From a virus (lineage: Duplodnaviria; Caudoviricetes): a stretch of 27,488 nucleotides of DNA. Shown piece after piece: positions 5,326 through 27,317 of the stretch; position 1 is the first letter of the stretch, and each line of letters opens with the position of its first letter. The notes under the pieces are model-generated. The model searched no databases. It saw nothing but the letters and a program-made list of their open reading frames with translations, and was not told where the DNA came from. The stretch covers positions 1-27,488 of IMG/VR virus record IMGVR_UViG_3300043296_000027, one strand, 5' to 3'. A program made the translations under genes and the position numbers.

Positions 5326-5588
5326 TGAAAATTCATTGTGCAGACGGTTGGCTCTTCCACGAATGGAAGAACAACAAGTGCGACCGGTGTGGTGTTACCT
5401 ACCGGGGAACCCTGACCGACGTGACATGGGGGGACGACCCGTCCCTCTTTGGAGTGCCCGTGCAAGACCACCTTGCTGATCCGACTGACCGACGCGGTTC
5501 GGCTGTCCCCCTGCTCCGGCTGGTCCGGGTACACCGCGACGAGGACGATTCATCATCGCACGCGTCTGCATCTGACCTCGTAAGCTAG
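5325..5588 (+). CDS. Small Cys/His protein (C..H-x-W..CxxCG); 3' part overlaps the convergent late gene
   Basis: GGAGG RBS and TAATG coupling; MKIHCADGWLFHEWKNNKCDRCG resembles small phage zinc-binding proteins (DUF1660-like). Confidence 0.5.
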   Translation: MKIHCADGWLFHEWKNNKCDRCGVTYRGTLTDVTWGDDPSLFGVPVQDHLADPTDRRGSAVPLLRLVRVHRDEDDSSSHASASDLVS

Positions 5589-6978
5589 ACGGAATCCGAG
5601 GTCCACCTATCGGTCCACCTCCACCACCGGGAGTTACACCGGGTCCACCTCTAGGATCTACGCCCGGAGGTGGTCTCATTGGCGGACGACGCGCTCCGCC
5701 TTGTTGCTGCTGCATCCGCTGCATCATTTCACGGATACCACCTCTACCTCCACCGGGTGGCATTGAACGTGGATCTCCACGCTGACCTTGTATCTGATTC
5801 ATCATCCCACGGATTCCGCCTCCACCACGTCCACCGGGGAACTTACCCGGCGGAGGTGTCATCGGTCCACGACCAGTCATCCACGGAGGCATCGGCTTAC
5901 CACCACCCGGCATCGCTCTGGCAGGAGGTGCACCTCGCCATGGTGTGCGACCACCACCACCGGGGAAGCCACCTCTAAAGTTTGATGCCGCAGCCAGTCC
6001 ACCGTGCTGATAGCCATCGACGTAACCACCATATGCTTGTTCCATTTCTTCTAGCTCCCGTTCGGTACGTGATTGACGATCTTCCTCAACACCGAGGCCT
6101 AACAACTTGCTGAACCAACCCTCTTCTTCCTCTGGCTCGGGTGGAGGTGGAGGGGGAGGTGGCTCTGCATGATACAGACGCTCCCAGTAATTGTACTGAG
6201 CACCATCTTTCGGGTGCGGGTTCGGTCCTCTATCTAAGGTGTCTTCGTGATGTCCAGCACGCACTCCACCACCTTCCGCGTAGCCACCCGGTGGCACCGC
6301 TAATGATGCTGCGATACGCAACTTGTGCGCACGTATGGCGTCCGAGTACTCGGTGTCTCTCCCTTCCCTCGGATCAGGTGGCGTGAAATCCACGGGAGGC
6401 ACGGCTGGCGGAATGATTCTGGGTGGAGTCTGACCTCCACCACCTCCGCCTCCGCCTCCTCCACCACCACCACCGCGACCACCTCCGCCACGTCGGCCAC
6501 CTCCACCGCGACGTCCACCACCTCGGGGACCTCGGTTAGGACCTGCGCTAAAAGTAGGTTCTGAGTCTTGTGGTTGCAGTATCGTTGGCTGCGGTGGGTA
6601 CCACTTCTTCTCTTCTTCATTGAAGAACCAGTTGCTGTGTATCAAGGCGTCGTAAGCACCTACGGAAGAGTAGATTCCTCCCTCCGGAAATAATCTCCCA
6701 GCCTGCCTCAAAGTAAGAGGTTCGTCACCTGCCCAGCTCATGTCAGGATCAACGGTAGTCCCACCACCATGGGCAAAGTTCAATTGCAAACCCGGCGCAT
6801 CCATTCGCTGACGCAGGTCATTCATCGGTGCGAGCCCACCTTCGTACATGCCTGCAGCTTGGTCAGCTGCAACGAACTCCTGTGCCACTGCAACGGGAGG
6901 AGCCTCCGTACGTGTGGGTTGCCAGCCGTGCGCAACAGCATTCATAAATCTAGCTTGCTTCTGTGACGTGCTCGGCAT
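5395..6978 (-). CDS. 527-aa Gly/Pro/Arg/Met-rich, largely disordered late protein with a conserved phage N-terminal module
   Basis: GGGAG RBS before ATG 6978; MPSTSQKQARFMNAVAH..VAQEFVAAD resembles a small module common in phage late regions; many RGG repeats, poly-Gly, poly-Pro; several FxxGG/YxxGG motifs. Confidence 0.8.
   Translation of the reverse strand: MPSTSQKQARFMNAVAHGWQPTRTEAPPVAVAQEFVAADQAAGMYEGGLAPMNDLRQRMDAPGLQLNFAHGGGTTVDPDMSWAGDEPLTLRQAGRLFPEGGIYSSVGAYDALIHSNWFFNEEEKKWYPPQPTILQPQDSEPTFSAGPNRGPRGGGRRGGGGRRGGGGRGGGGGGGGGGGGGGQTPPRIIPPAVPPVDFTPPDPREGRDTEYSDAIRAHKLRIAASLAVPPGGYAEGGGVRAGHHEDTLDRGPNPHPKDGAQYNYWERLYHAEPPPPPPPPEPEEEEGWFSKLLGLGVEEDRQSRTERELEEMEQAYGGYVDGYQHGGLAAASNFRGGFPGGGGRTPWRGAPPARAMPGGGKPMPPWMTGRGPMTPPPGKFPGGRGGGGIRGMMNQIQGQRGDPRSMPPGGGRGGIREMMQRMQQQQGGARRPPMRPPPGVDPRGGPGVTPGGGGGPIGGPRIPSSLRGQMQTRAMMNRPRRGVPGPAGAGGQPNRVGQSDQQGGLARALQRGTGRPPMSRRSGFPGR
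6433..6525 (-). repeat. Gly-codon low-complexity tract (RGGGGR repeats then poly-Gly)
   Basis: CCA/CCT/CCG triplet runs on the + strand with varied wobble positions. Confidence 0.8.
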
Positions 6979-6980
6979 GG

Positions 6981-7712
6981 TTACTCCCATCCTTTCACAA
7001 TTTCGTTGTACTTCTCAATGCTCCAACTTTTGGAGCGACGTTCCATCTGTTCTTCCTGATCTTTGTGCAGGCTTTCAGTGGTAAAAAAACCTTCACGTTT
7101 TATCGGTACATCACCTTCTGCTTCTCGTGCGTCCACTTCAGTTTGGAGAAGTGAGTTGCGGTTACTTGCAATCGTTTCTTTAAGGTGTCGCTCGACGTCC
7201 GCGTAAGTATTAATCGAGTCGTCGTTCTTCCACCTTCTCTTGTTCAATGCGTACCATCGATTAACTGCAGCTGCCCACTCGAACGGTGTGTCCGACCGGA
7301 AGGCATCGTGTATTAATCGACGTCTCTCTCTACCACCACCACCTTGTTGCTGATCAAGCCGGTGACCAAATTCGTGTGCCCAGATCTGCGGGTTAGCATT
7401 CGATGCACCAACTGCTGCAACTGTATCCGGACCCGGTGCTTCAATTCCTTTTTCCCTCAGCTTGTCAGCGATGGGTCCGTACCTACCAATCTCCATGATT
7501 GATTCAGAATCTGGACCTCGATACATCCCCTGCAAATTATAGTTACCAACAGGTAACAGTCGTGCTCTTTCCGCCTCCACTACTCCTTGAAGTTGCGGGC
7601 CACCTTGACTGACCACCTCGCCTTCGAACTCCATGTCCCAGAGCTGCGCTTGTAAAGCATACGCCGCATCCTCTTCCGGAGTAGAGTCAGGCCAAGGTGC
7701 TTTCTCTGGCAC
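6981..7712 (-). CDS. Putative zinc metallopeptidase-like protein (HExxH), 243 aa
   Basis: GAGGAGG RBS then GTG at 7712 overlapping the upstream TAG; QIWAHEFGHRLD motif (HEFGH at 7362-7376). Confidence 0.6.
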   Translation of the reverse strand: MPEKAPWPDSTPEEDAAYALQAQLWDMEFEGEVVSQGGPQLQGVVEAERARLLPVGNYNLQGMYRGPDSESIMEIGRYGPIADKLREKGIEAPGPDTVAAVGASNANPQIWAHEFGHRLDQQQGGGGRERRRLIHDAFRSDTPFEWAAAVNRWYALNKRRWKNDDSINTYADVERHLKETIASNRNSLLQTEVDAREAEGDVPIKREGFFTTESLHKDQEEQMERRSKSWSIEKYNEIVKGWE

Positions 7713-8452
7713 TAATGATACCTCCTCACTCGACGTGGTTGCGCAGCACGCATGAGACCACCGTGTGCAAAGCCACCCCACGTAGGTACGTTACCTACTC
7801 TGAGCGAACCGAGGGCTCCCATCGGTACCTGCTCTGCTATCTCAAGTGGAAATTCTTCGTCCATTGATGCCGCTCCCGCAGCCACTGCTGCCGTAGCTGC
7901 TGCACCAGTTCCCGACAAGCCAGCCATGAATGTAGATGATGCTGGTATCGCAGCCGTGAGTCCGCCCACGGTACTTCCTGCAGCGGTACCTGCTCCTGCA
8001 CCAGCCGCAGCACCTGCACCGGGAGCGAGTGCACCGAGTGCTCCGCCTGCGTAGATCGATGCAACTGTCGCAGCTATCTGATGGTTTCGAGCAGCCTTCT
8101 CCGCGATCTTCGGATCACCACCTTGCTCGACGTAGTCCACAAACCTCTGACTGGTTGCGCCACCCAACTGGTTGATGATGGGGTCGTAATCTGTACCGAG
8201 AGCTTCGTTCCACAGCTTCGTGCTGAACGGATCGAAGGACCCGTAAAGAATGCGCCCCGGATTACGCATGAGATCGTCCCAGATCTGTTTGAAGTGGAAC
8301 TTCTCGAAGTCAAGGCCAAGCTCTTCCCCGACTCCCTTCTCCAGCTTCTTTATGTGACCGAAGGGATCTCCCGGATCTTGCTTGATCCCGAGTGCCTTTC
8401 GCGTCTTCTTATGGAGGCCGAGAGGATCGGTGAGTGTACTGAAGAGACCCAT
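7712..8452 (-). CDS. Probable internal virion / DNA-transfer protein with Gly/Ala-rich hydrophobic segment
   Basis: MGLF start, long A/G-rich hydrophobic stretch as in podovirus small ejection proteins, C-terminal FAHGGL. Confidence 0.55.
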   Translation of the reverse strand: MGLFSTLTDPLGLHKKTRKALGIKQDPGDPFGHIKKLEKGVGEELGLDFEKFHFKQIWDDLMRNPGRILYGSFDPFSTKLWNEALGTDYDPIINQLGGATSQRFVDYVEQGGDPKIAEKAARNHQIAATVASIYAGGALGALAPGAGAAAGAGAGTAAGSTVGGLTAAIPASSTFMAGLSGTGAAATAAVAAGAASMDEEFPLEIAEQVPMGALGSLRVGNVPTWGGFAHGGLMRAAQPRRVRRYH

Positions 8453-9015
8453 TACTTTTCGACCTCCCCGGTGCGTCCGTCGATCAGTGCGTTGTCGGAC
8501 TTCGGTTTAATCAGTGACAGGATGCTGGACATGACTTCCATCCTCGTCTCGTCACGAATACCAATGGGTGCTCCTTCCGTGCCGCTGTGCTCAGTGTGTT
8601 TACGATCAGCCCAGTTCTTCCGCTGGCGATTGGTCAGCCACAACTTGATCGCTTGCACGTCAGGTTTGTAATGCTTGATGGTGTCGGCACGGATGACCTC
8701 ACCGTCCCACATCATTATCTTTTCTTCGTCGTGCGTGTAGCCGGTCGCTGTCTGGAACAGTGCGTTCAGCACTGCAGCATCCGCATCGGTGTAACCATCT
8801 TCGACAGCTCTTTTGAACGTAGGGTACTGTGCCTTCCAGATGCCCAGCTGCCTGCGACTGATGTCAAACACCTCAGAGATGTCGTCTTCGTCGAAGCCGT
8901 TCATCATGATCGCGCGGATCTGATCTGGGTAGTCAGGCAGGAATACACGGGAGCCAGCGGACAGTATCTGACCGTGTCGGTTCCTCGCCTTGCGATTGAT
9001 ACGTTTCGCTGGCAC
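8452..9015 (-). CDS. terS: Terminase small subunit-like protein
   Basis: HTH (DEDDISEVFDISRRQLGIWKAQYPTF), ADAAVLNALFQTATGY, KHYKPDVQAIKLWLTNRQRKNW.DR..EHSG, all typical of a widespread TerS family. Confidence 0.8.
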   Translation of the reverse strand: MPAKRINRKARNRHGQILSAGSRVFLPDYPDQIRAIMMNGFDEDDISEVFDISRRQLGIWKAQYPTFKRAVEDGYTDADAAVLNALFQTATGYTHDEEKIMMWDGEVIRADTIKHYKPDVQAIKLWLTNRQRKNWADRKHTEHSGTEGAPIGIRDETRMEVMSSILSLIKPKSDNALIDGRTGEVEK

Positions 9016-11336
9016 TACTGGTCCTCACCTGATAAGAAGTCCAGTACGTTCTTAGGGAGCTGCCCAATCTCACCAAAGGCTGCTTGAGTTTGCTCGACCG
9101 CGTAGTCAACGACGTCTTTACCTGCCTCCTTGAGAGAGTCACGTGAGATGTTCACCTCTGGGAAGTGGTAGTTGTTTCCCTTCCACTGTTTCTCGGCAGC
9201 AAGCATGTACGGGCGTAACGAATCCATGAGGAAAGCAGTTAATTTCTCATCACCTCTCGTGTGCGCCAATTGCAGCAAACGATTACGAACGAAGTTGCTC
9301 TGGTAAGCGTGACCTGCGCCAGCTGTAAAAGCACCCACTCCAACGAACGCTTCCAACATGCCAGCTATCCATGCACCACCACCACCGACAGCAGCAACCA
9401 TACCTGCACCTGCTGCAGTCTTCTCCGCAGATGCAGACAGACGTAAGTACTCACGCATGCCCGTGAGCATCTGCTGCTCTTCAGGACTAAACCATGCTGC
9501 GATGACCTTCCTGTTTGTAGGTGCGTTAAGCCACGTCATGAACTTCTGCGCATTTGCATTGCCCGGTGCATCCGCGTGCCACGTCGCGTCCTCCAAACCA
9601 TTCATAAGCCAGCGGTTCTTAAGAGCTGTTTTACCTTCAGGTGTCAGTCGTTCAAACAAATCAGTCATTATCGCTGACTTATTAGATGTCATCACTCCAT
9701 CGATAACAGCATCATCGATGTTGTTATTCAAGATTGCTTTCCTCAGGACACCCTCCGTGACTTCCTCCGCCTCTTTCGCCCACGCACGTTCTATCATCTC
9801 TTGCGCACGTCTTGGACCAGTCTGCGAGCCTTTGCCATAGTACGGAACGTTCTCTAGCATCTCCTGTTGCTTACCCCAGAAGCGTTGGTTCGTCATGCGT
9901 TCAACAAACGACTCCATTACACGGGTGCCATAGTTCGACTCAACATCGATGCCATATTTTTTAGCCAGCTCTGTCAATGAGTCGATGCGTTCCTGCACCA
10001 TGCGTTTACGCGCACGACCAGTACCGACGATAGGAATACGTTCAACAATTTTGGCGAAGATAGCCATCGGTGGCGTGATGCGTTCCTGCAATACATCTTG
10101 CGTCATCAGTCTGCGACCAGTCGTATCCGCGAACTCCATGGCAGCAGTTTTACCCGCGAGTTCTGCTACATCACCCTCGGGGATGGCACCTCTCAGATAG
10201 CTGGGAATTTTTGTTGCCACCCTGATAAGAGGATCGAAGACGTAGTCAGGCACCACACCTAGTAAAGTTGACAGAGCGACCTCAGCTTTGTTGAACTCGC
10301 CTCCGACCTGCGCATGTCCAGCTTGTATAGCTGTCTCAGTAAGCGCAGAGCCAGCCATCATAGCTTTAGCGCTTGCTGCACGAGCCTGACGTACTGCCAA
10401 TCGACGTGCCGTCTCACTCGCAGCTTTTACAGCTGCTTGACGCGCACCCGCTGACGCAACAGTAGCCCAACGACCGGTAGGCGTGTACATGCTACCAATG
10501 CCGATGATCTGCAGTGCATCCATCATGCTGAAGCCCGGACGATTGACCAGTGCCATCAGCGGCTGTCCATTAGCGTCCCTCCGGTGGTTGTTGACCAAGA
10601 TAAGTGCACCATCAGGCGCAACCATATGACTAACACCGGGGAACATCGCAACGCTTTCCATCTCCCCTGTCGTGGGGTTCTCGAACTCAACCCGCTGCGT
10701 CATGGTGTCCACAATCTCTTGCGGATCCGTCATCGTCAGCGTTGCCATGCTCATGCCGAAGTTCTCAGCGAGCTGTCCAAGACCATCGATTCTGATCGGA
10801 GGCATAAACGGCGTACCCGTCATCGCGGAAGCAGCTGCCGCCTGTTCCCAGCCACCCATCCGGTCGAGTGCTTCTTCATCAATGCTCATTCTTACATCTG
10901 TCTCGGGCAAGAACATTGACAAACCTGCTTCCATGCTCGCCATCTCAGGGAGTTGAATCGATGCACGTGATGTACCACGCTCCTCAGGGAAGGGAGACAA
11001 CTCTGGCATCCCCTTTGGAGTTACGATGTCGGCGGGCTGGGCAGATCCAAAATCCATCTCCCCAAACGGATCGTTAGCAGGATCTCCCCAGAAATCAGCG
11101 AACGGATCATCGTACGCCTGACCAAACTGACCTTCAGGCGGCATTATCTCGGGTGTACCCAGCTCCTGAGCCATCAGTGCGATGTTCTCTTCCTCGGCAG
11201 ACTTCCCTGAGATTGCAAGGTCCGAACGCATGTTGAGGATCTCCTCCTCGGTGGGCTCTTCCTCACGCCCTTCCATCTCACCCATCATTTGCTGCAAGCG
11301 GATGTCGGCCTGCACTTCTTCTTCAGGTCTGGACAT
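9015..11336 (-). CDS. Large internal virion / ejection protein (773 aa)
   Basis: Helical, Ala-rich, hydrophobic patches, VNRPGFSMMD segment; last and largest of the ejection-like block. Confidence 0.6.
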   Translation of the reverse strand: MSRPEEEVQADIRLQQMMGEMEGREEEPTEEEILNMRSDLAISGKSAEEENIALMAQELGTPEIMPPEGQFGQAYDDPFADFWGDPANDPFGEMDFGSAQPADIVTPKGMPELSPFPEERGTSRASIQLPEMASMEAGLSMFLPETDVRMSIDEEALDRMGGWEQAAAASAMTGTPFMPPIRIDGLGQLAENFGMSMATLTMTDPQEIVDTMTQRVEFENPTTGEMESVAMFPGVSHMVAPDGALILVNNHRRDANGQPLMALVNRPGFSMMDALQIIGIGSMYTPTGRWATVASAGARQAAVKAASETARRLAVRQARAASAKAMMAGSALTETAIQAGHAQVGGEFNKAEVALSTLLGVVPDYVFDPLIRVATKIPSYLRGAIPEGDVAELAGKTAAMEFADTTGRRLMTQDVLQERITPPMAIFAKIVERIPIVGTGRARKRMVQERIDSLTELAKKYGIDVESNYGTRVMESFVERMTNQRFWGKQQEMLENVPYYGKGSQTGPRRAQEMIERAWAKEAEEVTEGVLRKAILNNNIDDAVIDGVMTSNKSAIMTDLFERLTPEGKTALKNRWLMNGLEDATWHADAPGNANAQKFMTWLNAPTNRKVIAAWFSPEEQQMLTGMREYLRLSASAEKTAAGAGMVAAVGGGGAWIAGMLEAFVGVGAFTAGAGHAYQSNFVRNRLLQLAHTRGDEKLTAFLMDSLRPYMLAAEKQWKGNNYHFPEVNISRDSLKEAGKDVVDYAVEQTQAAFGEIGQLPKNVLDFLSGEDQ

Positions 11337-12736
11337 TAGAGTGGTGCTCCTAATTGACGGAGAGGTACGATCATATCCTCTGGAATCTTAGCTCTCTGTC
11401 GGAACGATTCGATGATTCTTCGCTGCTCCTCAGGGTTACCTTGATTCGCCTCAATAAGCTGCATCAACTTATCGCGCGTTGCCTGAGGTATGGGAGGAGG
11501 ACCTGTCTCCCGCTCTTTGACCTGCAACATCTCTGCACTCTCTTTCTGGAATCGTAGGTACTGATTCTTCCACAGCTGAGCTTCTTGGTTACCCGGTGAT
11601 TCTGCCAACATCTGCGCAGCGAACTCCCCACGCTCGATGATCTCGCCCATCTTGATCATACCCAAACCGATGATCGCGACGTTTTCTGAGACGCCTTTGC
11701 CCAGTCCTGCGTTCAGTTCTGCCATCTTCTTGTATTCGAAGTCGGTCTTGCTACCTGTCAACGTCAACAGATCAGCAAGTACCTGATCACCGAACAGTCG
11801 ATGCAGTTTAGCGAGTGTCGTGTTGTCCGTGATGGCTGCATCACTGATGCCAGCCCACATTGCAACCTGACGTATGGCTTCGTTAAGACCACTCGTGTTC
11901 TCATCCAAGGTCATCAACAGATTGTGCGCCTTCCTCAACCGCAGGATGGCAGGCATCATTTTGATACCGTCATTGGCTTGTTTGTTAGCTGTCTGAACCG
12001 CTAAGGTTGCAGTGTTCGTTGCTACTGCCTGTGCAGCTGCTTGCGACGGATCCTTCCTCGGATCTACCATGATCCATGGATCTCCCGGTGTGCCATCAGG
12101 ATTTATCTGACGCTCAATGCGCGAGACGGTAGTACCGTCAGGCTGCATAATAATGCTGACGATGTTGCGCTCGGCTTGCGCCTCCGTGATTTCATTATTT
12201 GCGATGCGTATTTTATCAGCCGGAGAGATGACATCTCGCAGACCTACGACACGTGCACGGCTGTTGCCTTTGAAGCCTTCCAAGTTAGCGAGCGAGTCGA
12301 AGTAGTCACCTGCGATCTCGTACTCACGATGAAGCATGCGCTCTTCTTCCTCTGCTATCGCTTGTTCTTGCTCGAACGATTGCGCATTCACGTCACGCAG
12401 TGCGCCCGCAGCGTAGCCAACGTTCTCACCGAACGCACCGGTCTTCGTTGGCGACAGCATTGCCTGTGCAAGTGCGAGCCACCTGTCCTGTTCGGCACCC
12501 TTCTGCTGCCTCGTCCGACGTTCTGCTAAGGTGTTACGTGACTCACGCAGACGAGCCATGGCATCGTCCTTGGTCATCGTCGCCATCTTGCGCAGCTCGA
12601 CTAACGGATCGACCTCTGCAAGGATCTCTTCGGTACCGGTCGCTGCTGACACATCAAAGGACGTATCTTCTTCTTCCTCCTCGAACTCGGGGGAAAGTGT
12701 CAACGCTGCCAGTCCACCTGCTTGAAAGTTTCTCAT
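11336..12736 (-). CDS. Internal virion / ejection protein (466 aa)
   Basis: TGATG overlap gives the start MRNFQAGGL; coiled coil; LALAQAMLSPTKTGAFGE and LTGSKTDFEY segments resemble podovirus ejection proteins. Confidence 0.6.
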   Translation of the reverse strand: MRNFQAGGLAALTLSPEFEEEEEDTSFDVSAATGTEEILAEVDPLVELRKMATMTKDDAMARLRESRNTLAERRTRQQKGAEQDRWLALAQAMLSPTKTGAFGENVGYAAGALRDVNAQSFEQEQAIAEEEERMLHREYEIAGDYFDSLANLEGFKGNSRARVVGLRDVISPADKIRIANNEITEAQAERNIVSIIMQPDGTTVSRIERQINPDGTPGDPWIMVDPRKDPSQAAAQAVATNTATLAVQTANKQANDGIKMMPAILRLRKAHNLLMTLDENTSGLNEAIRQVAMWAGISDAAITDNTTLAKLHRLFGDQVLADLLTLTGSKTDFEYKKMAELNAGLGKGVSENVAIIGLGMIKMGEIIERGEFAAQMLAESPGNQEAQLWKNQYLRFQKESAEMLQVKERETGPPPIPQATRDKLMQLIEANQGNPEEQRRIIESFRQRAKIPEDMIVPLRQLGAPL

Positions 12737-14058
12737 CAGTCCTGTTTCCATTTCAGTTCGATGTTCTTTTTGGATGCATTCTCATTAGCCAATGTGTGAC
12801 CACCCAAGACACCAATACTATCGGTAGGGTCAGGGCGAAGGTTTTGTGCCCATGCGCTCAACCCACCCCACGCAGTTTTACCAAGCCCGTACATCTTCTT
12901 CCACGCTGCCGTGGCGAGTCCCCCGATGCTGTACTCCTCGGGAATGTATCCGCCTTCAGCCATTACTTTTGGGTACGCATACCCACCCTCCGCGTAGTCG
13001 CTCACGTCTTCGTACTCACCTTCAATGTAACCACCTTCCGCTTCGCCGCTCGGATTCATTCCGCGATACACACCGTACGCGCCAACAATTTGTGACAACG
13101 GTGACGGCTGGTAAATCGAAGCCGGTCCAAAGTCGGTGCGAGTTTGCGTCCTGTCCATCGGCAAGCCACGAATAGCTTGGTTCATGAATGCAACACGGTC
13201 GAACGGCAAGTTGCGCTGTTCGAGGAAGTCGGCGTAAGCCATGTCGAGGCTCGCCTGATTGAGACCTTGTTGCTGAGCACCGATGCCCTCCATTGCTGCT
13301 GCATCTGTAAGACCCATGCGTTGAGCTTCTGAACCCAGCATGCCAAGACCTTCGGCACCTCGGTACATGCTCGTCGCACCCGCTTCTTCGAGTGCACCGA
13401 CGATGCGTGCCATCTCTGCGGAACGCGACTGGTCACCAGCAAAGATGTCTGCGCCTTGACCGTACGCTCCGTGAAGTGCTTCGAGCCGCTGGGCTTCGAG
13501 ACCTTCCTGAATGTCACGTCCACCTCGCATGGCAATGTCTTCCATCGAGCCGGTGCCACCACGGGATCCATACTGACCTGCGCCTCCGAACATGCCGGAG
13601 AGGCGAGGCATAAATTCTTCTTCCAGTGTTCGCGTGGCGAGCGCCTCCTGTCGGTCGAGCACGTTCCCGATGTACGGGCTCATGTAAGACTCGGCGACAC
13701 CTTCGTCAGTCCACGCTTGCGATCCTCTTTCGACGAAGGGAGATGCCGCACGTCCAATGTTCGCAGCGCGACTGAGACCACCACCGTAACCAGCTGCTGC
13801 GCCTTCGAGGTAAGGCTGGTACGCACCTGTTTGCGCTTCTACCATGCCGAACGCAGCTTGTTGCTCGGGCGTGAAGCCTGCGATCCTCGGACCACCGTAC
13901 GGGATGTACGGCTCAGCAGCGGCTGCGTTCGCTCGTGCGATCAACCCCTGCGTGTAATCCGACATCCATTTTGGGATGCCCTCGACGGTCTGCCCTTCAG
14001 TTGTAACCGATTGTGGAGGCTTTCCCTCAAACAGAAAGTCAATATTGCTATCTGGCAT
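12736..14058 (-). CDS. Internal virion / DNA-transfer protein (440 aa)
   Basis: IPKWM..PYIPYGGPRIAGFTPEQQAAF, YMSPYIGNV, GAQQQGLNQASLDMAYADFLEQRNLP pattern of podovirus ejection proteins; four tandem xxGG motifs near the C-terminus. Confidence 0.65.
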   Translation of the reverse strand: MPDSNIDFLFEGKPPQSVTTEGQTVEGIPKWMSDYTQGLIARANAAAAEPYIPYGGPRIAGFTPEQQAAFGMVEAQTGAYQPYLEGAAAGYGGGLSRAANIGRAASPFVERGSQAWTDEGVAESYMSPYIGNVLDRQEALATRTLEEEFMPRLSGMFGGAGQYGSRGGTGSMEDIAMRGGRDIQEGLEAQRLEALHGAYGQGADIFAGDQSRSAEMARIVGALEEAGATSMYRGAEGLGMLGSEAQRMGLTDAAAMEGIGAQQQGLNQASLDMAYADFLEQRNLPFDRVAFMNQAIRGLPMDRTQTRTDFGPASIYQPSPLSQIVGAYGVYRGMNPSGEAEGGYIEGEYEDVSDYAEGGYAYPKVMAEGGYIPEEYSIGGLATAAWKKMYGLGKTAWGGLSAWAQNLRPDPTDSIGVLGGHTLANENASKKNIELKWKQD

Positions 14059-15983
14059 TACGATCTCCCCGCTGCGGCTCGAAGCCGTCCCATGTAAGCC
14101 TCAGGCGACTTGGCCTTATGGCTGAAGCCACCCTTCATCAGGTTCTTCGCTTTGTGCTTACGCATGTTCGAGCGCATCTCATCCAACCGACTTGCGCCTG
14201 CCTTACCGGATCCGTCACCCAAGAGTGCCACCGTTTCTGCGTCTATGACGTACTCACCGTCGCTCAGTCGCGCCGGAATGTCGTCGGACCTACCAGTGCC
14301 CGGTCCCTGCGTGTAGCCACCACCAGCGCTCACAGCGGGTGCAGCGCGTGGTACGTCGGCGTTCTGAGCCCAGTAATCGAAGTGACCTCCACGTTGGAAG
14401 CCCGTGCCCTGACCCAGCTGTTGTGGAGGCATCCATGTCTGCGTGTTGGGATCCAACGTGTAGCCAGCTGCTTGAATCTGCTGACCACCATCTCCGACCA
14501 TGGCTTGTGGAATAGGCTGACCTGCCGCGATCATCTGAGCGATGCCTCCCACCCCGCCCAGTCCACCAGCGGGACCGGGATGTGTCGGCGTGCCGGTCTC
14601 ACCAGAGAAAGGATCAGGCGTGATGAACAAGCTCTCGCCTGTGATAGGCGCACCGGGCTGTCCGTATGTGTAGTAAGCATTCGGATCGGTCGGGCCGATG
14701 AACTGACGATTGCTGTCGTAAAGAGGCAGCGGCTTGTTGAAACCCTCAGGTTGGGTGAAATCAGGTGCGCCCTCTTCTTCGCCACCACTCAGTGCGCCCA
14801 TCGCTGCCATGATTGGCAGTCCGTACTTCATCAGGTTACCGGTATCACCACCAGCTGCAGGAGTTGTCGTGCCTCCGGCGGGAGTCACCACAGGTGCCGG
14901 AGGACCGGAAGGACCACCGGGCTCACCGTAACCGGGAATCGGTTCTGGCGGACCCATCTCGCCCGGTGCAAGGCCACCGGATGGATCAAGTGACCGCGCT
15001 TGTGCGAGTGCACCTTCTGTTCCCGCTCTCGCGGCTTCACGTGCCATCGCAGTTTCTGGCGACTCAGCTCTCGCAAGGATGCCGCCTTCAGCGGGACCTT
15101 CGAGCCCCAGCATCTCCTGACCTCTGCCTGCGATGTTCTCTATCGTCGGCTGCATCATCTGGGTCAGTGCACCGGACATGGCACCTTCCATGAAGTCGCC
15201 ACCGGTTAATGAAGAACCTGCGCCACTCGCCAGACTGGATCCGACGATGGCTGCAGTGCTGTCGGACAGTCCGGGTGCAACAGTTTTTATCATGTCGCCC
15301 GTCACCGCACCGAGACCTCCAGCGATAGCACCTGTCATTGCACCCGTTGCGAAGTCACCACCACCGGCAGCGGACATGCCACCGCGCAGCAGTGCGTTGC
15401 CGACAATAGAAGCCCCGGCTCCTGACACGCCCGGTATCAGACCACCGATCCACGTGCCGAGTCCGGGAGCGAACATGCTCAGTGCGATTGGAGCAACGAT
15501 CTGGAAGATCTTGGAACTGAAGACTTTTTTCACTGCCTTCTTCACGCTCTTCCAAATCTTGGAGAAGAATCCGTACTCAGGCATGCCGGTGTTCGGGTTG
15601 ATGTCAGCCTTACCCCACATGCCTTCAAGGACGCCTAACTCTTCAGGCGTCATGTGCACCATCATCGAGTCACCGTTGCGTCCACCTCGACGTGTCGTCT
15701 CAGCAGCTTTCGCCAGACCACCTTCGGCCTTCTCGACGTAGCCACCGATCTCGTACAGCTTCACCTTTTTGGTTTCCGATGACTTGACACCTGCCTTCTT
15801 CAGCAACTCGGTTGCAGCAAATGAGTAAAGCAGCTCAGGACCACCCGGTATGGATTCGATCAGCTCCGCAGCATCAACGACCTCTTGGTCGCCGCCCTGC
15901 TCCACCAGCATGGAAGCCAGACCTCGTCTTGCACGGATGCCTTCAGCAGCTGCCGGTACTCTGGAAGTATTTTGTGTAGCCAT
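14058..15983 (-). CDS. Internal virion / ejection protein (641 aa)
   Basis: GRNGDSMMVHMTPEE..INPNTGMPEY module, amphipathic helix, Gly-rich hydrophobic region, C-terminal GPGTGRSDDIPARLSDGEYV module also familiar from tape-measure protein C-termini. Confidence 0.7.
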   Translation of the reverse strand: MATQNTSRVPAAAEGIRARRGLASMLVEQGGDQEVVDAAELIESIPGGPELLYSFAATELLKKAGVKSSETKKVKLYEIGGYVEKAEGGLAKAAETTRRGGRNGDSMMVHMTPEELGVLEGMWGKADINPNTGMPEYGFFSKIWKSVKKAVKKVFSSKIFQIVAPIALSMFAPGLGTWIGGLIPGVSGAGASIVGNALLRGGMSAAGGGDFATGAMTGAIAGGLGAVTGDMIKTVAPGLSDSTAAIVGSSLASGAGSSLTGGDFMEGAMSGALTQMMQPTIENIAGRGQEMLGLEGPAEGGILARAESPETAMAREAARAGTEGALAQARSLDPSGGLAPGEMGPPEPIPGYGEPGGPSGPPAPVVTPAGGTTTPAAGGDTGNLMKYGLPIMAAMGALSGGEEEGAPDFTQPEGFNKPLPLYDSNRQFIGPTDPNAYYTYGQPGAPITGESLFITPDPFSGETGTPTHPGPAGGLGGVGGIAQMIAAGQPIPQAMVGDGGQQIQAAGYTLDPNTQTWMPPQQLGQGTGFQRGGHFDYWAQNADVPRAAPAVSAGGGYTQGPGTGRSDDIPARLSDGEYVIDAETVALLGDGSGKAGASRLDEMRSNMRKHKAKNLMKGGFSHKAKSPEAYMGRLRAAAGRS

Positions 15984-15987: not shown

Positions 15988-16257
15988 CTATCCCATAAAA
16001 TTTGTAGTTGAAAACAATCTCATTGCCCAGTCTTTCCAGTCGTCGTAATCGTAAGGGTCAGGCACATCTTGCCCCAACGCATCGACCCCACCATACACAC
16101 CGACTGCCCACGCTTGCCACTCCGCAGCATCATCCAAGCGTGGGTAATTAGGATCCGATCCGCTCAGCTCGTCAGAGAAAAAACCCAGCTCACCAGTCAT
16201 CCGGTCAGCCCACTGAATCACCTCAGTGTCAGCGAAGCCTCGGGGATCGATGATCAT
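15988..16257 (-). CDS. Small acidic Trp-rich hypothetical virion-module protein
   Basis: ATGA overlap with the nozzle gene; WQAWA..VPDPYDYDDWKDWA. Confidence 0.7.
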   Translation of the reverse strand: MIIDPRGFADTEVIQWADRMTGELGFFSDELSGSDPNYPRLDDAAEWQAWAVGVYGGVDALGQDVPDPYDYDDWKDWAMRLFSTTNFMG

Positions 16258-17798
16258 GTCTCGACCCTTCCGTCAGCAGGCCCGATGTGGGCGTACGTCT
16301 TGCCCAGCTCGTAGTTGCCGCCTGCTACGTTCGATTCAAACTTGAAACTCATCAGCCGCTTGATCTCTTTAAACTTAACAGTCTCCTCGTCGGAGGAGGA
16401 GGGTGTAGCAAAAATTGTCTCAGTCGCTCCGTCCACCACATCAGCTTTCGCGTTGGCACGTCCACGTACCTGCAGGGTCATGTCACCCGACTGCACCAAG
16501 TCAGGCTCGACGCGTGCAACGTGCAAGGATTTGTCCGCTATGTTCTGGTCGAGCAGTGCAAACTCATGCGTCTCGAACGACGAGCGCACCGCACTGATGC
16601 TGCTCAGGCGAATCTTGTCGAACGCAGTCTCGTGCTGCCACAACGTACGACCGTTTGCCGTGACTTCGTTGTCCACCATGAAGGGACGTTGATACACGTC
16701 AGCGTAGATGCCTGCGCATCGTCCTTGGTTGAGGTCGTCGCTGTCAGGTAACGGTGTGTCGAACCAGTAACCTTCACGCACGTTGAAGACCACAGCGTGC
16801 GTGCACTCGGTCGCACTGCCTCTTGGGTAGCACCACCACAGCTCACCGTAGCGTGGGATCTTCATGCCGAAACATTTCTGCCGCTCGCGGAAGTTGATGT
16901 TGTCGAAAAAGAAATTCTGATTCATGTTGTTTGGAATCTCTCGCACGACACCGTTGAACATGTACCACCGATCCACACCGGGCCAGTAGTAAATGCCGTC
17001 CATCTCGACGACACCCTGCGAACTCATGATGGTTGTGCCACGAGCAATGACGTCGTACGCGAAGTCGGGGGGACCACTTGGAATGAAGGTGGCCCGAATG
17101 ACAATATCGAGACCCCAGAACAGTGCAGCAGGACCTTGCCCAGCTCCACGCAGCGGCATGCCCTTCACGATCTTCTGGGAACCGATGTTGACAGCAACTG
17201 GTTGCAGGGTGAGGTTGTTGGCTACCGACTGCACGATGAGTCCGTCACTACCGTAAGTCCACGTGTACACACCGCTGGTCAGGACACCACCACTGGTTGC
17301 TTCCGCACCGTTCCAGTCGGCGTGTAAGCCAACCGTGTCGAGTACGGTCGTCGCAACGAGGGTGTCGATGTACAGCGTACCGTTGACAGAGTTGTCGATG
17401 TTCTGGGCGTTCTCTGCAGCGTGCGCCATCAGTACATGATTAGGAGTGCCACTGGTGTCAGCGAAGATGTCGAACTGCCACAGGTTGTTGAGATCTGCAT
17501 TGAATCCTACGGGCGTGCGATCACTGAACAAGTTGAGCGAACCGTTCGACACTTGGTACTGACCGATGGTGTTTGGGTGACCGAGGTGTAAGAACTGAAT
17601 GTTATCCTGTGAAAATGAAGCCATGCCGCGAGTAATCTCGGGCACCGTGTCGGTGACCTGCTGATAGCCGCCAATCTTTTTCGGTTTGCCACGCTGGAAC
17701 CTGCACCACTCGCCATCGACGTAGTGTTCGCTGTCGAAACGCGTGCCGTCCCGTTTGATACCGGGAGCAGACGCTAGCATTGCAGGTTGTTCAGCCAT
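16254..17798 (-). CDS. Tail nozzle / packaged-DNA stabilisation protein (P22 gp10 / T7 gp12-like role)
   Basis: PGIKRDGT..YVDGEWCRFQRGKPKKIGGY N-terminus, beta-rich body, YGELWWCYP..VVFNVREGYW, ends in DGR; position before the ejection genes. Confidence 0.7.
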   Translation of the reverse strand: MAEQPAMLASAPGIKRDGTRFDSEHYVDGEWCRFQRGKPKKIGGYQQVTDTVPEITRGMASFSQDNIQFLHLGHPNTIGQYQVSNGSLNLFSDRTPVGFNADLNNLWQFDIFADTSGTPNHVLMAHAAENAQNIDNSVNGTLYIDTLVATTVLDTVGLHADWNGAEATSGGVLTSGVYTWTYGSDGLIVQSVANNLTLQPVAVNIGSQKIVKGMPLRGAGQGPAALFWGLDIVIRATFIPSGPPDFAYDVIARGTTIMSSQGVVEMDGIYYWPGVDRWYMFNGVVREIPNNMNQNFFFDNINFRERQKCFGMKIPRYGELWWCYPRGSATECTHAVVFNVREGYWFDTPLPDSDDLNQGRCAGIYADVYQRPFMVDNEVTANGRTLWQHETAFDKIRLSSISAVRSSFETHEFALLDQNIADKSLHVARVEPDLVQSGDMTLQVRGRANAKADVVDGATETIFATPSSSDEETVKFKEIKRLMSFKFESNVAGGNYELGKTYAHIGPADGRVET

Positions 17799-17802: not shown

Positions 17803-20097
17803 TTACTCAATAAGTACGGGGCAAATTGTCATCCAGCCACCGCTGTTGCGAGAAACCGTGTCGATCTGGTTAACCGTTGGCCTCCAGCGGAAGTCGAACG
17901 TCGAAGAAAAGTTATCGAATCTGGCGTATCCGGTGATGCGCAAGTAGGTGCGCTCTCCAGCTGACCCCAAGGTGAGTGACTGGTTGGTTGCTGCGTCGTC
18001 GCTTGCACCTGCACCGCTAGGTGTACCGTCGGCAGTGCGGAAGTCATAGATGTAGCTGCACTCAATAATGTTGGTGCCGTCGAAGTCAAACTCGATCTGA
18101 GCCGTGCCGCCCACTTTAGAGAACGAGGCGTAGACCTCGAACTTGACATAGCCTTGGCGTCTGACAAAGCCTGCGACCAGACGGTTGTCCGCTGCCATCG
18201 TGGTGGTCAGGCTGCGGTCGTCCGCGATGCCACCTGTCATGGCGTGATCGATGTAAGTCAGCACGCGTTCGTTGGAACCTGTACCCGTCGTGTTGTTGTT
18301 AACGAGGAAGCCACCGCTAGTGCCGAAGTACGGATAGGCTGCACCACTGACTGCTGCGGAGCGGGCAACAGGTACGTTGCCGAAGTTCAGCTGTACGCTA
18401 CCATCGGATGTGATCAGGTCGATATAAGTTTTGACGAATCCACCAGTGTTAAAGGTGTCATTGATTCTCCCGTCACCAGAAGCGTCTAGAATCTCAAGTT
18501 CGATACCTCCTCGGAAGTTCAACACTTTCAGCTGGATGGCAATGTCAGAATTCTCACCGTAGTGGAATGGACCTGCACCCAAGAATTCCATCTGGGTGCC
18601 ATCCCATTGGAACTGGATGTCATTACCGGTGCCGAATCGAATCTGTTCATTGTCCAGCAGGATCAGCGGTGCGCCGATGGTGATCGTCTTATCGGTACCT
18701 CCTCCTGACGCTGTGACAAATCCACCAACGAAGTCGAGAACCTGTGCTTGTGTCGCCAGAGGTACCCCTTCATCTTCGATAGTGACTCCGCCCAGTGCGA
18801 GGATGTCAGTGAGCGTCGCTTTGATATTGATGTCAGCACCATCGACATCTTGTAAGACCATGAAGTCGCCGAGTGCCGGAGCAACTGCACCGATGCTTGC
18901 AAGATTGAAATCGAACGTGCGTGGAGTGGATGATAGATCTCCACCTCCAACCATGCCGTCGCCCGCTATCAGGTCGAACGTCTCAGCGACAGCCCCCAAG
19001 TTTACAAGCGCTGTTGGTGCATCGGTTGCACTCGTGCCCCCCTGACCAATGGTGATCGGGAACGCCACACTGGTGGATGACGTCGCGTTGATCACGTCGG
19101 TAGCATCGCAGTAAACGATTACGCTCTGCCCTTGCGGGATGGTTATCCCTGCACCAGCAGCTGTGGAAACCTCCAGCGAGAAGGCACCACTCGTCTGGTT
19201 ATCTGCCCAGTACTGCTGCGTCGTATTCGGTACGACGATGCGTCGGTTACCCGTCAGTGCGCCCGTAAATCTATACGAGATCCTGTCGAGGTTTGCACCG
19301 GAGAGTACGAAGTCACCAGAGCCCGGTACCGCAAGCGACACGAAGTCGAACGCAATGGTCGAGGCAACAGTGAGTCCGATGGTGAAAAAGTCAGTGCCGT
19401 CTGTGAAGATAAACGTACTACCATTCGGATCGAGGTTGAGACTCGACGCTCCATCGATGTCGCCAGACGGGGGCACGATGTTAAGCGTACCGCTGCCTGC
19501 GTTGCGCAGCATGAAGAACCAGTTGTTGAAAACCACTCCCGGTGATGGCAAGTTACATGTGCCTGCACCTGCCGTGTAAATCAGGCACTTCGCTCGATCA
19601 CCATTGACCACAGTGAAAGGTGTTCCAGCCTCGACATCCGAATCAATGATCTGGTCCAGCTGAATACCAAAAGGTCTGAGACCATCACCTGCTAACGCAG
19701 AGGCAGACGCTTGGGTAGCTGCATTGCCACCCAGTTGGAAAGTTGTCCACACACCCATATCGGTCGAGTTGTCCGTGAGCACGATGACCCACTGCTCACC
19801 GGGCTGCACGGATTGAATCGTGCCGCCTGTGTTGTCGCGCACGGTGAAGACGTTGACGCCTCCCACGTTGTTGAACGTCGCTTTGTTACCCAGCGAGGTG
19901 TTCCTCGCGTCAGGCATGTCGATGTTGAGTCCACCAGCTGTGGTATTGACATCGATGATGTCTGCAACGACGTCTCCGCCTGTGATCTGTTGCTCAGTCG
20001 GCCATTGCAAGACAACATCGATGGCTGTGGTGAGTGCGAGATAAGTGACCCTCGATGGGAAGATCAAATTGCCGCCAAATACGTCGGAGTAACCCAT
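17803..20097 (-). CDS. Tail fibre / tail appendage protein (764 aa)
   Basis: Gly/Thr/Asn-rich beta composition, ITIGQGGTSAT..ALVNLG fibre motif, FTGALTGNRRIVVP module, modules shared with the second fibre. Confidence 0.75.
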   Translation of the reverse strand: MGYSDVFGGNLIFPSRVTYLALTTAIDVVLQWPTEQQITGGDVVADIIDVNTTAGGLNIDMPDARNTSLGNKATFNNVGGVNVFTVRDNTGGTIQSVQPGEQWVIVLTDNSTDMGVWTTFQLGGNAATQASASALAGDGLRPFGIQLDQIIDSDVEAGTPFTVVNGDRAKCLIYTAGAGTCNLPSPGVVFNNWFFMLRNAGSGTLNIVPPSGDIDGASSLNLDPNGSTFIFTDGTDFFTIGLTVASTIAFDFVSLAVPGSGDFVLSGANLDRISYRFTGALTGNRRIVVPNTTQQYWADNQTSGAFSLEVSTAAGAGITIPQGQSVIVYCDATDVINATSSTSVAFPITIGQGGTSATDAPTALVNLGAVAETFDLIAGDGMVGGGDLSSTPRTFDFNLASIGAVAPALGDFMVLQDVDGADINIKATLTDILALGGVTIEDEGVPLATQAQVLDFVGGFVTASGGGTDKTITIGAPLILLDNEQIRFGTGNDIQFQWDGTQMEFLGAGPFHYGENSDIAIQLKVLNFRGGIELEILDASGDGRINDTFNTGGFVKTYIDLITSDGSVQLNFGNVPVARSAAVSGAAYPYFGTSGGFLVNNNTTGTGSNERVLTYIDHAMTGGIADDRSLTTTMAADNRLVAGFVRRQGYVKFEVYASFSKVGGTAQIEFDFDGTNIIECSYIYDFRTADGTPSGAGASDDAATNQSLTLGSAGERTYLRITGYARFDNFSSTFDFRWRPTVNQIDTVSRNSGGWMTICPVLIE

Positions 20098-20741
20098 TAG
20101 ACTGTGTCCCTAGTAACGTTTCTATCGACGATGCGTTTGATGTCCTGCCCTTCAAGAATTGCAACGTCTTTCTCGTAAATCGCTTCCCACGTGGGAATGC
20201 GTTCGTCGTTCTTTAAAAACGGAGTTGCCTGCAGGAGCGCGCCATGAAGTAGGGCGTTCGGGGCAAAGTCCGACGACCAATTCGTTTGATTGGTGGCATC
20301 CAGAAGTGCAGGCAACTCCCAATAATTGACCTCGAATGGATATGCGAAGTCAGCTGACGGAGCTATCAACCAGTTGAAGTAATCGTAGTCAGCATAGAAC
20401 TTTGGCTGAGCAGTCAAATCTTCATCCGGCCAATAGCGCCGACAGTACTCGTAGCTGCGAGCGAACAGAGGGGTGCGTACCTGTGTAGTGCCCACACCGA
20501 AGTTGATCGAGATGGTATCTCTCCACCTGTCGGGCTTCGGAATTACTGACTGTCCAACACCCAGCGTATCCGTGACCACAGTCACGAATCCGAGGATCTT
20601 TAACCGGTTTGCCAGCTCACGCTCAGCCAGATTGATCAGGCTGGGCAGCTGTTCAAACACAGTAGGATCGACAGCCGTGCCTCGCTCCAAATATGCACGG
20701 AGATCAGCAAGAAGCGAGTCGAATGTCATTGAGACAGCCAT
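20097..20741 (-). CDS. Head-tail adaptor / tail tubular protein-like
   Basis: MTFDSLLADLRAYLER..LPSLINLAERE..PKFYA..IAPSAD..TNWSSDFAPNALLHGALLQA..FLKND pattern. Confidence 0.7.
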   Translation of the reverse strand: MAVSMTFDSLLADLRAYLERGTAVDPTVFEQLPSLINLAERELANRLKILGFVTVVTDTLGVGQSVIPKPDRWRDTISINFGVGTTQVRTPLFARSYEYCRRYWPDEDLTAQPKFYADYDYFNWLIAPSADFAYPFEVNYWELPALLDATNQTNWSSDFAPNALLHGALLQATPFLKNDERIPTWEAIYEKDVAILEGQDIKRIVDRNVTRDTV

Positions 20742-21605: not shown

Positions 21606-21606
21606 A

Positions 21607-22958: not shown

Positions 22959-22995
22959 TTTTCCTTCTCCTAATTATCCACTTTCGTGGTTTGTG

Positions 22996-25152: not shown

Positions 25153-25510
25153 TATTGGCTTCCTCGTTTCCGGCAATTTCCGATGGTTCAAGCACACGTA
25201 GCCTGCCGTCTTCCGTCACACGTGGACTTGTACCGGGAGCGTCACGCACACCACCGATGAAGTTCACATTCGGGTCCGGACCTCCTGTCGTCAGGTCTTG
25301 GTCGGGTCGATAGAACGGCAGCGTGATGCGATCTGCCTGACGTGGAGCCAGACGATACGGATCGTAATCATCGAGGTCATCGATGCAGACCTTAATCCCC
25401 GGACTGTTCGGGTCCGAGTGCAGGTCTTCCAGAAAAAACTTGCAACTACATCGGGCACAGATCCCGATGCCGAACGTTGTTTTCCCAGTTGGATCTAAAA
25501 AAATTGGCAT
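25145..25510 (-). CDS. Small conserved virion-module protein with CxxC..VC motif
   Basis: GICARCSCKF..L..VC..DP..RPD pattern, typically found after the adaptor gene in this kind of phage. Confidence 0.7.
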   Translation of the reverse strand: MPIFLDPTGKTTFGIGICARCSCKFFLEDLHSDPNSPGIKVCIDDLDDYDPYRLAPRQADRITLPFYRPDQDLTTGGPDPNVNFIGGVRDAPGTSPRVTEDGRLRVLEPSEIAGNEEANNA

Positions 25511-25512
25511 GC

Positions 25513-26580: not shown

Positions 26581-26697
26581 CTATCTCGCTCCGCGTGTAC
26601 GCATTCCTCGTCCACCGCTTGGACGTTGCTGATGTCCGCGAGGGCGAGGAGCCTTGATGTGCTTATCCATTACATCCTCAGCTTCCCGCCTCGCTAT
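26581..26697 (-). CDS. 38-aa -1 frame extension of the 207-aa protein (alternatively an independent 29-aa ORF from ATG 26670)
   Basis: Hand translation IARREAEDVMDKHIKAPRPRGHQQRPSGGRGMRTRGAR*; its TAG directly abuts the ATG of the adaptor gene. Confidence 0.6.
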   Translation of the reverse strand: MARREAEDVMDKHIKAPRPRGHQQRPSGGRGMRTRGAR

Positions 26698-26716
26698 TTT
26701 TTTATGCTGCCACCTC
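26638..26716 (-). promoter_or_regulatory. Candidate -1 programmed ribosomal frameshift signal
   Basis: GAGGT, 8 nt, A AAA AAA (26703-26697), TAG, then a hairpin with arms GCGAGGCGGGAAGC / GCTCCTCGCCCTCGC and inner GATGT/ACATC. Confidence 0.55.
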
Positions 26717-27317
26717 TCGCATAACCAACGCTGCCACCTTTGCACTTGACGTTCTTCGGCATGCCTGCCGCTGAAGCTTTCAAGGGTGCTTTCATCGGGC
26801 CTTTCTTCGGATGCAGGACTTTTTTGGCATGCTTAATAGCAGCATCAGCCAGTGCACCTCCACCGCTATCGACCCTGCCACCCTTATGCAATCCGGGCTT
26901 CAGTCGCCCAGTGCCACCGGCTTCTCGCTCGGCCTGATTGCGGGCATTCTTTCCGCGACGCGCAGGCTGAACACCATGGTCCATGGTCTTCTGCTTGCCC
27001 TTCTTCATCTTGAACTCATCGGAGGTGTCGCCGCTCGCACCGTATTTCTTGACCGCACCACCGTACATGTAGCCCATCTTCGCGCCAGCCTTTTTCAGCT
27101 TGCCATGCATGCCACCTTTCATGTAGCCGCCCTTGGCACGAGGTGTCGTGATCGTCACGTCATCGACTTGGATCTCACGCTCCGGTCCCATGAAGCCGCC
27201 CGCCATTTTCTTCACTGCTCCGCCACGCTTGTAGCCTTTCACGCTACGGGAACCAGTGAAGCCCTGTTCCGCAGGAAATTCAAATTCCCCGTATGTTAAT
27301 CCAACGTTCTTTTTCAT
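26694..27317 (-). CDS. Lys/Gly-rich basic late protein with repeated xxGG motifs
   Basis: GGAG RBS; YKRGG, KMAGG, RAKGG, YMKGG, YMYGG, LHKGG, KCKGG, YARGG. Confidence 0.75.
   Translation of the reverse strand: MKKNVGLTYGEFEFPAEQGFTGSRSVKGYKRGGAVKKMAGGFMGPEREIQVDDVTITTPRAKGGYMKGGMHGKLKKAGAKMGYMYGGAVKKYGASGDTSDEFKMKKGKQKTMDHGVQPARRGKNARNQAEREAGGTGRLKPGLHKGGRVDSGGGALADAAIKHAKKVLHPKKGPMKAPLKASAAGMPKNVKCKGGSVGYARGGSIKK

Follow-up and report, generated by a model that had tools for sequence, protein, structure and literature searches.

A short Gly-Gly motif shared by unrelated late proteins of a podophage: a candidate docking tag for head cargo

Six otherwise dissimilar late proteins encoded on a 27,488-nucleotide stretch of podophage DNA (IMG/VR record IMGVR_UViG_3300043296_000027; this whole stretch is called the window below) share a short motif that is best written as [YFMK]-[AQK]-x-G-G-x-[VA]. 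As judged from sequence, the motif is real, selected at the protein level and restricted to certain protein classes. We put the probability at about 0.45 that it is a docking tag which is not cut and which would hold predicted head cargo until ejection. An initial annotation of the window had described the motif as [FYM]-x-x-G-G and had proposed a common tag, either for maturation cleavage or for loading internal proteins into the procapsid. The distribution reported here supports a common tag on probably internal proteins; it demonstrates neither loading nor cleavage.

Motif-bearing proteins of the window

All 20 hexamers quoted in the initial annotation were found in six open reading frames (ORFs) on the minus strand between 5395 and 27317. 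Sixteen of them fit [FYM]xxGG, while LHKGG, KAEGG, EAEGG and QAYGG do not, and the wider consensus given above describes the set better. The proteins quoted at 466 and 527 amino acids (aa) begin at the second start codon of ORFs that span 471 and 531 aa in full. The carriers, their motif copies and their conserved blocks are the following:

26694..27317, minus strand: basic protein of 207 aa (45 Lys plus Arg, 15 Asp plus Glu), seven profile-scored copies
27216-27233, 27108-27125, 27054-27071, 26874-26891 and 26706-26723, minus strand: quoted copies of the 207-aa protein
14058..15983, minus strand: 641-aa protein, first of the ejection cassette, after the nozzle gene and an 89-aa gene
15738-15755, 15714-15731 and 14382-14399, minus strand: motif copies of the 641-aa protein
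15507..15791, minus strand: conserved N-terminal block of the 641-aa protein, with two copies and an invariant Asp, His and Glu; next come an amphipathic stretch rich in Lys and a hydrophobic segment
14061..14399 (core 14247-14306), minus strand: module common to the 641-aa protein and tape-measure proteins
12736..14058, minus strand: 440-aa protein, second of the cassette, four copies in the C-terminal tail
13027-13044, 12979-12996, 12946-12963 and 12916-12933, minus strand: copies of the 440-aa protein
11336..12736, minus strand: 466-aa protein, third of the cassette (471 aa from an upstream ATG), one copy at residues 4-9 (12710-12727)
7712..8452, minus strand: 246-aa accessory protein, one copy (7754-7771) 14 residues before the C-terminus
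5395..6978 (5395-6990 for 531 aa), minus strand: Gly-, Pro- and Arg-rich accessory protein of 527 aa (531 aa from an upstream ATG)
6832-6849, 6760-6777, 6673-6690, 6265-6282, 6022-6039 and 5995-6012, minus strand: copies of the 527-aa protein

The position of the motif is characteristic of each family: N-terminal in the 466-aa protein, tandem and C-terminal in the 440-aa protein, present towards either end of the 641-aa protein, and distributed along the 207-aa and 531-aa proteins. Copies were indeed seen at termini and at module joints, in line with the placement described in the initial annotation. On the basic carriers they are evenly spread, with three to eight copies in each homologue of the 207-aa protein (19/19); this protein is predicted to be internal and nucleic-acid-associated, and its homologue in relatives lies between the capsid genes and a 355-aa gene. 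In some relatives the homologues of the 246-aa and 531-aa proteins are fused at the motif, which shows a route from terminal to internal copies. The N-terminus of the 531-aa protein is a portable block (phrog_16759) that relatives fuse behind the 246-aa homologue or behind other domains, and its C-terminal part is a long low-complexity tail of Gly, Pro, Arg and Met.

Statistical support for the motif

Under plain residue shuffling, the 19 matches of the six proteins compare with an expectation of about 6.5, and the 3 matches of the remaining 26 ORFs with one of about 4.2. Taken singly, no carrier but the 531-aa protein (p=0.002) and the 207-aa protein (p=0.007) reaches significance; this test is circular, because the six proteins were selected for the motif. 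A profile was trained on 34 proteins of distant relatives (L101-L166; scaffold identity 31-42%), which were picked by our own pattern and excluded capsids. With this profile the six carriers gave 13 sites and the other 26 window proteins none; over 500 shuffles in which all Gly stayed fixed, the mean for the six was 1.62 and the highest value 6. The enrichment thus persists with every Gly held in place. The single tail-fibre match mentioned in the initial annotation was an undercount, as the 764-aa fibre has three plain matches, but the absence of profile sites outside the carriers drops these out as chance background.

All four Gly codons are used at both glycine positions of the motif and all 16 pairs occur, GGT-GGT being the commonest, which indicates that the constraint acts on the protein; the four tandem copies of the 440-aa protein likewise differ in their codons. 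Within the 471-aa family, conservation reaches 0.77 and 0.74 at the two glycines against 0.07-0.22 upstream, a comparison that is partly circular, and since homologues are related by descent, p-values at the family level overstate significance. No paper on this motif was found in the literature searched, to which subscription papers and most supplements did not belong.

Distribution over protein classes

The motif is kept in homologues of the carriers, a conservation check that the initial annotation had also proposed. After dereplication, profile-positive homologues numbered 19/19 for the 207-aa, 30/32 for the 641-aa, 24/26 for the 440-aa, 15/27 for the 471-aa (22/27 by pattern), 18/19 for the 531-aa and 6/6 for the 246-aa protein, the last being mostly fusions with the 531-aa gene. 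Copy number among the 440-aa homologues ranges from 0 to 4. Homologues of non-carriers were almost free of it, namely nozzles (0/33), fibres (0/42 and 1/27), adaptors (0/20 and 0/16), helicases (0/11) and the 773-aa ejection protein (2/26).

Another 825 ORFs, taken from 59 contigs of metagenome-assembled genomes (MAGs) and dereplicated per class, formed a second set that gave the same division. Portal (0/28), large terminase subunit (TerL; 0/16), GroES-like (0/36) and adaptor (0/16) proteins were negative, as were fibre-like proteins (0/29) despite their 344 Gly-Gly pairs, and major capsid proteins (0/24), the latter partly by design given the composition of the training set. Positive classes were large charged accessory proteins (11/14) and small Lys-rich basic proteins (27/64), and two of 43 scaffolds scored. 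In relatives, the motif is also found on otherwise unrelated proteins of 700-1400 aa encoded near terminase and portal; these large carriers have matches to PcfJ, ART-PolyVal, GNAT, GP88 or ASCH, several of them under the Pfam cut-off. Their copies lie at module joints, and in 6 of the 14 large accessory proteins a copy lies at most 30 residues from the C-terminus. HTVC023P, DSL-LC04 and 023Pt_psg01 carry the motif on ejection-cassette, accessory or small basic proteins.

Two head proteins were considered separately. An [FY]xxGG string at capsid residue 70 (L051:3283-4212), present in 8/8 distant relatives, was set aside as a tag because the capsid of HTVC023P lacks it although the ejection proteins of this phage carry the motif; it is absent from the CRP-901 capsid as well. 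In the scaffold (L051:1066-2076), a motif-like pentapeptide precedes the conserved C-terminal domain in 9/11 close relatives, and three distant scaffolds have a copy within their acidic N-terminal part. As a general feature this copy was set aside, with 0/33 and 2/43 in the wider sets.

A module shared with tape-measure proteins

The initial annotation had noted similar strings near the C-termini of tape-measure proteins, and this link proved closer than claimed, since a whole module is shared with the motif as its end segments. Tape-measure PHROGs match the 641-aa protein at residues 521-611, and the module reads motif, a G.G..D.I.A.LS.GE core, helices and motif again, with invariant D, S, G and E. 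A significant profile match (E<=0.001) was obtained for 7952 representatives, and no Pfam family covers the module; lambda gpH is presumably among the proteins that carry it. The window copy at residue 529 is the leading segment, with an insert of 20 residues; the window has lost the trailing copy, which homologues retain. The module profile matched the tape-measure proteins gp46 of JBD30 (PDB 8RK3; E 2.3e-13) and gp16 of a mycobacteriophage (PDB 8ZDO; E 7.5e-36), and a profile built from podophages only still matched 8ZDO (E 3.9e-16). Residues 1022-1066 of JBD30 gp46 form a predicted anchoring 'hook' near the tail tip (PMC11445458).

AlphaFold models of the window module (pLDDT, the predicted local distance difference test score, of 47) and of a tape-measure-type unit (65.7; two helices and no strands, where the hook fold has two helices plus a hairpin) both have unfolded motif segments, and a viral fold search with the module model returned tape-measure matches, none at E<=0.001. 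Some podophage homologues (L045:15075-16994; P0158, P0224 and similar) carry the module twice in tandem, each partly decayed, and giant tape-measure-like proteins of 2000-5000 aa (P0123-P0260) hold three to five copies. The N-terminal block of the 641-aa protein had no family or structure match, its haemoglobin matches being due to chance, and homology between this block and the C-terminal one was not significant (E 0.22 and 0.045). The N-terminal block resembles a pro-region that would cover a membrane-active helix, comparable to the case of trimmed P22 gp7.

Proposed function

From the gene order after the nozzle gene, the neighbouring DNA-transfer gene and the polyvalent-type domains on the large carriers, we infer that the carriers are packed inside the head. 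The motif would keep cargo proteins attached to a partner in head assembly until they are ejected, its aromatic residue and the Val or Ala two places past Gly-Gly plugging into a groove while Gly-Gly forms a tight turn, and tandem copies would contribute avidity. Gain of a terminal copy would recruit a new cargo protein, and later gene fusions would leave copies at domain joints. The most likely reader would be either the 641-aa module itself, in which free copies would replace the module's end segments, or the portal or scaffold surface to which that module binds. A tag for binding accounts better than a cut between domains for two observations: the four tandem copies in the 440-aa tail, where homologues have 0-4, and the copies near the C-terminus of six large accessory proteins. 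A wider form of the proposal strikes us as a long shot: the 641-aa module would capture free [YF]-A-x-G-G-x-V in trans, any protein bearing the seven-residue tag would be packed and injected, and one code would serve both podophage loading and siphophage tape-measure anchoring, with the same module marking processing or anchor points of tape measures.

Several points weigh against a docking tag. No reader of the motif was identified, and for the 207-, 246- and 531-aa proteins a place inside the head is itself a prediction. Not every ejection protein has the tag, the motif-free 773-aa DNA-transfer protein being an exception, and some 471-aa and 440-aa homologues also do without it; untagged ejection proteins such as the 773-aa protein would enter through partners. 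On the late strand of the 50 kb examined from CRP-901 no copy scores, and the Caulobacter phage KcrB has only the two module copies, so the motif is dispensable for this virion plan. Among unassigned ORFs of the second set, 15/377 score as well. In the two AlphaFold models the motif segments are not folded (pLDDT of about 40-50). The link to protein C1 of crAss001 (gp45) is one of resemblance, an analogy: no sequence homology was detected between its domain (PF25725; PDB 7QOG chain M) and the module (E 0.38), the copy at its residue 425 lacks an aromatic residue at -3, and of the gp45 copies just one passes the profile. C1 could be cut immediately before Ala425.

The portal-bound domain of crAss001 C1 (PDB 7QOG) is modelled from residue 425 (PMC10172136). 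The protein has eight A-x-G-G strings, residue 425 beginning with Ala-Phe-Gly-Gly, and as the glycines at 427-428 lie within the modelled domain, C1 is not cut after them. Searches for C1 homologues gave mainly near-identical sequences, and other crAss001 cargo proteins had no scoring copies in the part examined. We also re-matched the published MALDI (matrix-assisted laser desorption/ionization) peaks of crAss001 against 27 proteins, with the portal not listed and with trypsin and keratin masses removed by hand beforehand (PMC6235969). At least 10 virion proteins were recovered well above decoys; gp45 had at most 5 matches against a decoy mean of 3.4, gp46 was not recovered either, and no peptide spanned a motif (PMC6235969). 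Bands 1-2 of the same data (crAss001 is L171 in our set) contained gp44 plus the small ring proteins gp34 and gp40, which suggests an SDS (sodium dodecyl sulfate)-resistant tail complex (PMC6235969).

Alternative explanations

The rival account that we weigh most seriously, though we think it rather unlikely, makes the motif a maturation cleavage site, at which the cargo would be cut by a phage or host protease that went unrecognised or by the module itself through its invariant Asp, Ser and Glu; polyprotein-like cargo would be split, termini trimmed and basic proteins turned into DNA-neutralising peptides, maybe as a tag plus cut as in T4. The initial annotation had pointed to the adenovirus, ASFV (African swine fever virus) and C39 proteases, an analogy that neither the consensus rules of adenain and C39 nor the searches for a peptidase family support. 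Adenain needs Met, Ile or Leu at P4 before x-G-G, which holds for only 2/20 window sites and 24/339 homologue sites, and C39 leaders are N-terminal with hydrophobic residues at -12, -7 and -4 before Gly-Gly, a pattern seen at 0/20 window sites. The motif, adenain, ASFV pS273R and C39 sites have a Gly-Gly core in common, and adenovirus too has small basic substrates; in the motif, however, the hydrophobic residue is at P5 and not P4, P4 is Ala, Gln or Lys and P2' is Val or Ala. No peptidase family was detected in the 32 window ORFs (Pfam, E<=0.01, at which remote homologues may escape) or in 58 late-region ORFs of close relatives (PHROG and Pfam; 38 of these ORFs are one contig's run from terminase to the 531-aa homologue, and many have no assigned family), and the late regions of KcrB, GB2A and MW202545 have no annotated peptidase among genes of which many are of unassigned function. 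Scaffolds are usually among the substrates of prohead proteases, T4 being one case (PMC9026906), and here they are mostly motif-free (2/43). Four tandem copies in a single tail would be redundant for a cut, and the glycines at 427-428 of crAss001 C1 are modelled continuous with the downstream domain (PMC10172136). In favour of a cut, large accessory proteins and extended 471-aa homologues have copies between their modules, and the module, with its invariant D, S, G and E, recurs three to five times in the giant tape-measure-like proteins. Precedents exist in lambda gpH, where a cut falls in a Gly-rich stretch close to the C-terminus, with neither the enzyme nor the site known (PMC12617516), and in T4 Alt, which loses propeptides at both ends (PMC9026906). 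Both modelled pieces of crAss001 C1 begin at or just past motif-like strings (residue 425, and residue 214 with Gly-Gly at 209-210; PMC10172136), and C1 was not seen near full length in the re-matched MALDI peaks, although the same is true of the motif-free gp46 (PMC6235969). Overall, the sequence comparisons do not support cleavage at the motif.

An element that acts after loading appears improbable too: the motif could be a hinge or self-pairing segment that folds in oligomers only, or a portal or tail-channel contact that orders unfolding and exit, with free copies cross-linking a cargo bolus or spacing DNA-binding segments. Consistent with this are the unfolded motif in monomer models, the three to eight evenly spread copies on basic carriers and the motif's integral place in the tape-measure module, where, in the predicted 'hook' near the tail tip, capsid loading is irrelevant (PMC11445458). 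An address explains the single terminal copies on unrelated accessory enzymes better, and the largest ejection protein, which also passes the channel, has no motif. That the motif is a by-product of Gly-rich composition, of recent DNA duplication or of Shine-Dalgarno-like sequence at gene junctions we hold to be very improbable indeed. The carriers do contain 7-21% Gly, four of the six are not significant alone and several copies lie close to gene ends; yet the enrichment survives with every Gly fixed, Gly-rich fibres stay at 0/29 and the motif columns are better conserved than their flanks (partly circular). A composition artefact was rejected on the Gly-fixed shuffles and the second ORF set, and a Shine-Dalgarno or DNA-repeat origin on codon use, with 16/16 Gly-Gly codon pairs (most often GGT-GGT) and codon-divergent copies in the 440-aa protein.

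Genomic context

Replication genes occupy the plus strand of the 27.5-kb window up to 5325, and late genes the minus strand from 27317 down to 5395. Its gene content marks the late region as a podophage late operon, in which proteins of 641, 440, 466 and 773 aa make up an ejection cassette: a run of large genes follows adaptor, fibre and nozzle genes, and the DNA-transfer protein comes last. The same gene order is seen in the Caulobacter phages KcrB and GB2A and in DSL-LC04. The remaining features are the following:

20097..20741, minus strand: SU10-type tail adaptor, 214 aa, motif-free context gene (PF24175, E 1.8e-22)
17803..20097, minus strand: tail fibre, 764 aa, three loose [FYM]xxGG matches, none above the profile
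16254..17798, minus strand: nozzle/stabilisation protein, 514 aa, motif-free (family scans; 42% identity to Caulobacter phages RW/KcrB/GB2A)
9015..11336, minus strand: DNA-transfer (ejection) protein, 773 aa, no motif (phrog_770, E 3.5e-12)
8452..9015, minus strand: terminase-small-subunit-like gene (family scan)

Weaker database matches of the 514-aa nozzle protein are labelled 'stabilization protein'. The terminase-small-subunit-like gene (8452-9015) follows the ejection cassette, distant from the large subunit, and relatives have a different 180-aa gene immediately before TerL. The cultured relatives are the Caulobacter phages RW, KcrB and GB2A (capsid 77% against a close relative of the window phage) and, more distantly, HTVC023P (Pelagibacter), CRP-901 (Roseobacter) and DSL-LC04; MAG matches are spread over many phyla and indicate no host. 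The window is without head genes, and the head gene order was taken from relatives, where terminase, portal, GroES-like, scaffold, two unassigned genes and capsid are followed by a probable decoration protein, a fibre and then the 207-aa homologue. Conserved across this phage family are the GroES-like co-chaperonin gene upstream of the scaffold gene (L088:9541-9990) and, after the scaffold gene, a 192-aa gene of no known family (L088:11014-11592), a candidate reader or protease whose Atlas neighbours are all unnamed. Close relatives have Tad2-like and Acb2/Tad1 anti-defence genes upstream of terminase (L088:84-464, L093:2770-3006, L093:3196-3423).

Significance

The choice of proteins that short-tailed phages pack and inject is known case by case only, from the capsid targeting sequence (CTS) of T4 and the scaffold of P22. 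If a seven-residue tag is indeed common to ejection, basic core and polyvalent effector proteins, the question of cargo choice becomes directly testable, and the family has cultured members for such tests (Pelagibacter HTVC023P, DSL-LC04 and Caulobacter KcrB). Cargo would then be predictable from sequence, and the tag could serve as a portable handle for protein delivery. As the motif forms the ends of an unnamed tape-measure module with about 8,000 representatives, it is also tied to the anchoring or cutting of tape measures such as lambda gpH.

Comparison with known systems

The JBD30 and 8ZDO hooks have the motif as first and last segment, the same as the window module. They sit in a siphophage tail protein. 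In the window, by contrast, the module stands at the end of a protein from a podophage ejection cassette, and several other proteins carry free copies of its end segment. crAss001 C1 is alike in that its gene directly follows the nozzle gene and that it is Gly-rich with many A-x-G-G strings, one of which starts the portal-bound domain (PMC10172136).

In P22, the ejection proteins gp7, gp16 and gp20 load through the scaffold, gp7 is N-terminally trimmed by the host OpdA, and the accessible text describes no common loading motif for the three (PMC8402733), a difference from the present system. Both phages have an ejection cassette after the tail genes, and the 773-aa protein matches a DNA-transfer PHROG. 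Phage polyvalent proteins are late-gene neighbours and likely packed in the virion (PMC5512222), which the large carriers of the relatives resemble in their PcfJ, ART-PolyVal, GNAT, GP88 and ASCH matches and their place among late genes. They differ in that processing is tied to MPTase domains and delivery to MuF, and the word 'glycine' is absent from the main text of that paper (PMC5512222).

A further parallel is the T4 CTS, which loads unrelated proteins, among them IPI, IPII and IPIII, and is trimmed by gp21 (PMC9026906). The CTS is one 10-mer at the N-terminus, which a known protease takes off after L/I-x-E (PMC9026906), whereas the present motif may be N-terminal, C-terminal, internal or tandem and differs in sequence, and the searches turned up no protease for it. 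A lone N-terminal copy occurs only in the 471-aa family; sharing among carriers and exclusion from external proteins are seen by sequence, with internal location inferred; and the head and late genes of relatives yielded no peptidase family in PHROG or Pfam, many of these genes being unassigned. In both cases a short peptide sits on unrelated, often small basic, non-conserved proteins, internal in T4 and predicted to be so here, and would let the phage recruit new cargo. By analogy, the motif likely works as the T4 CTS does, while its position and its sequence place it outside that class.

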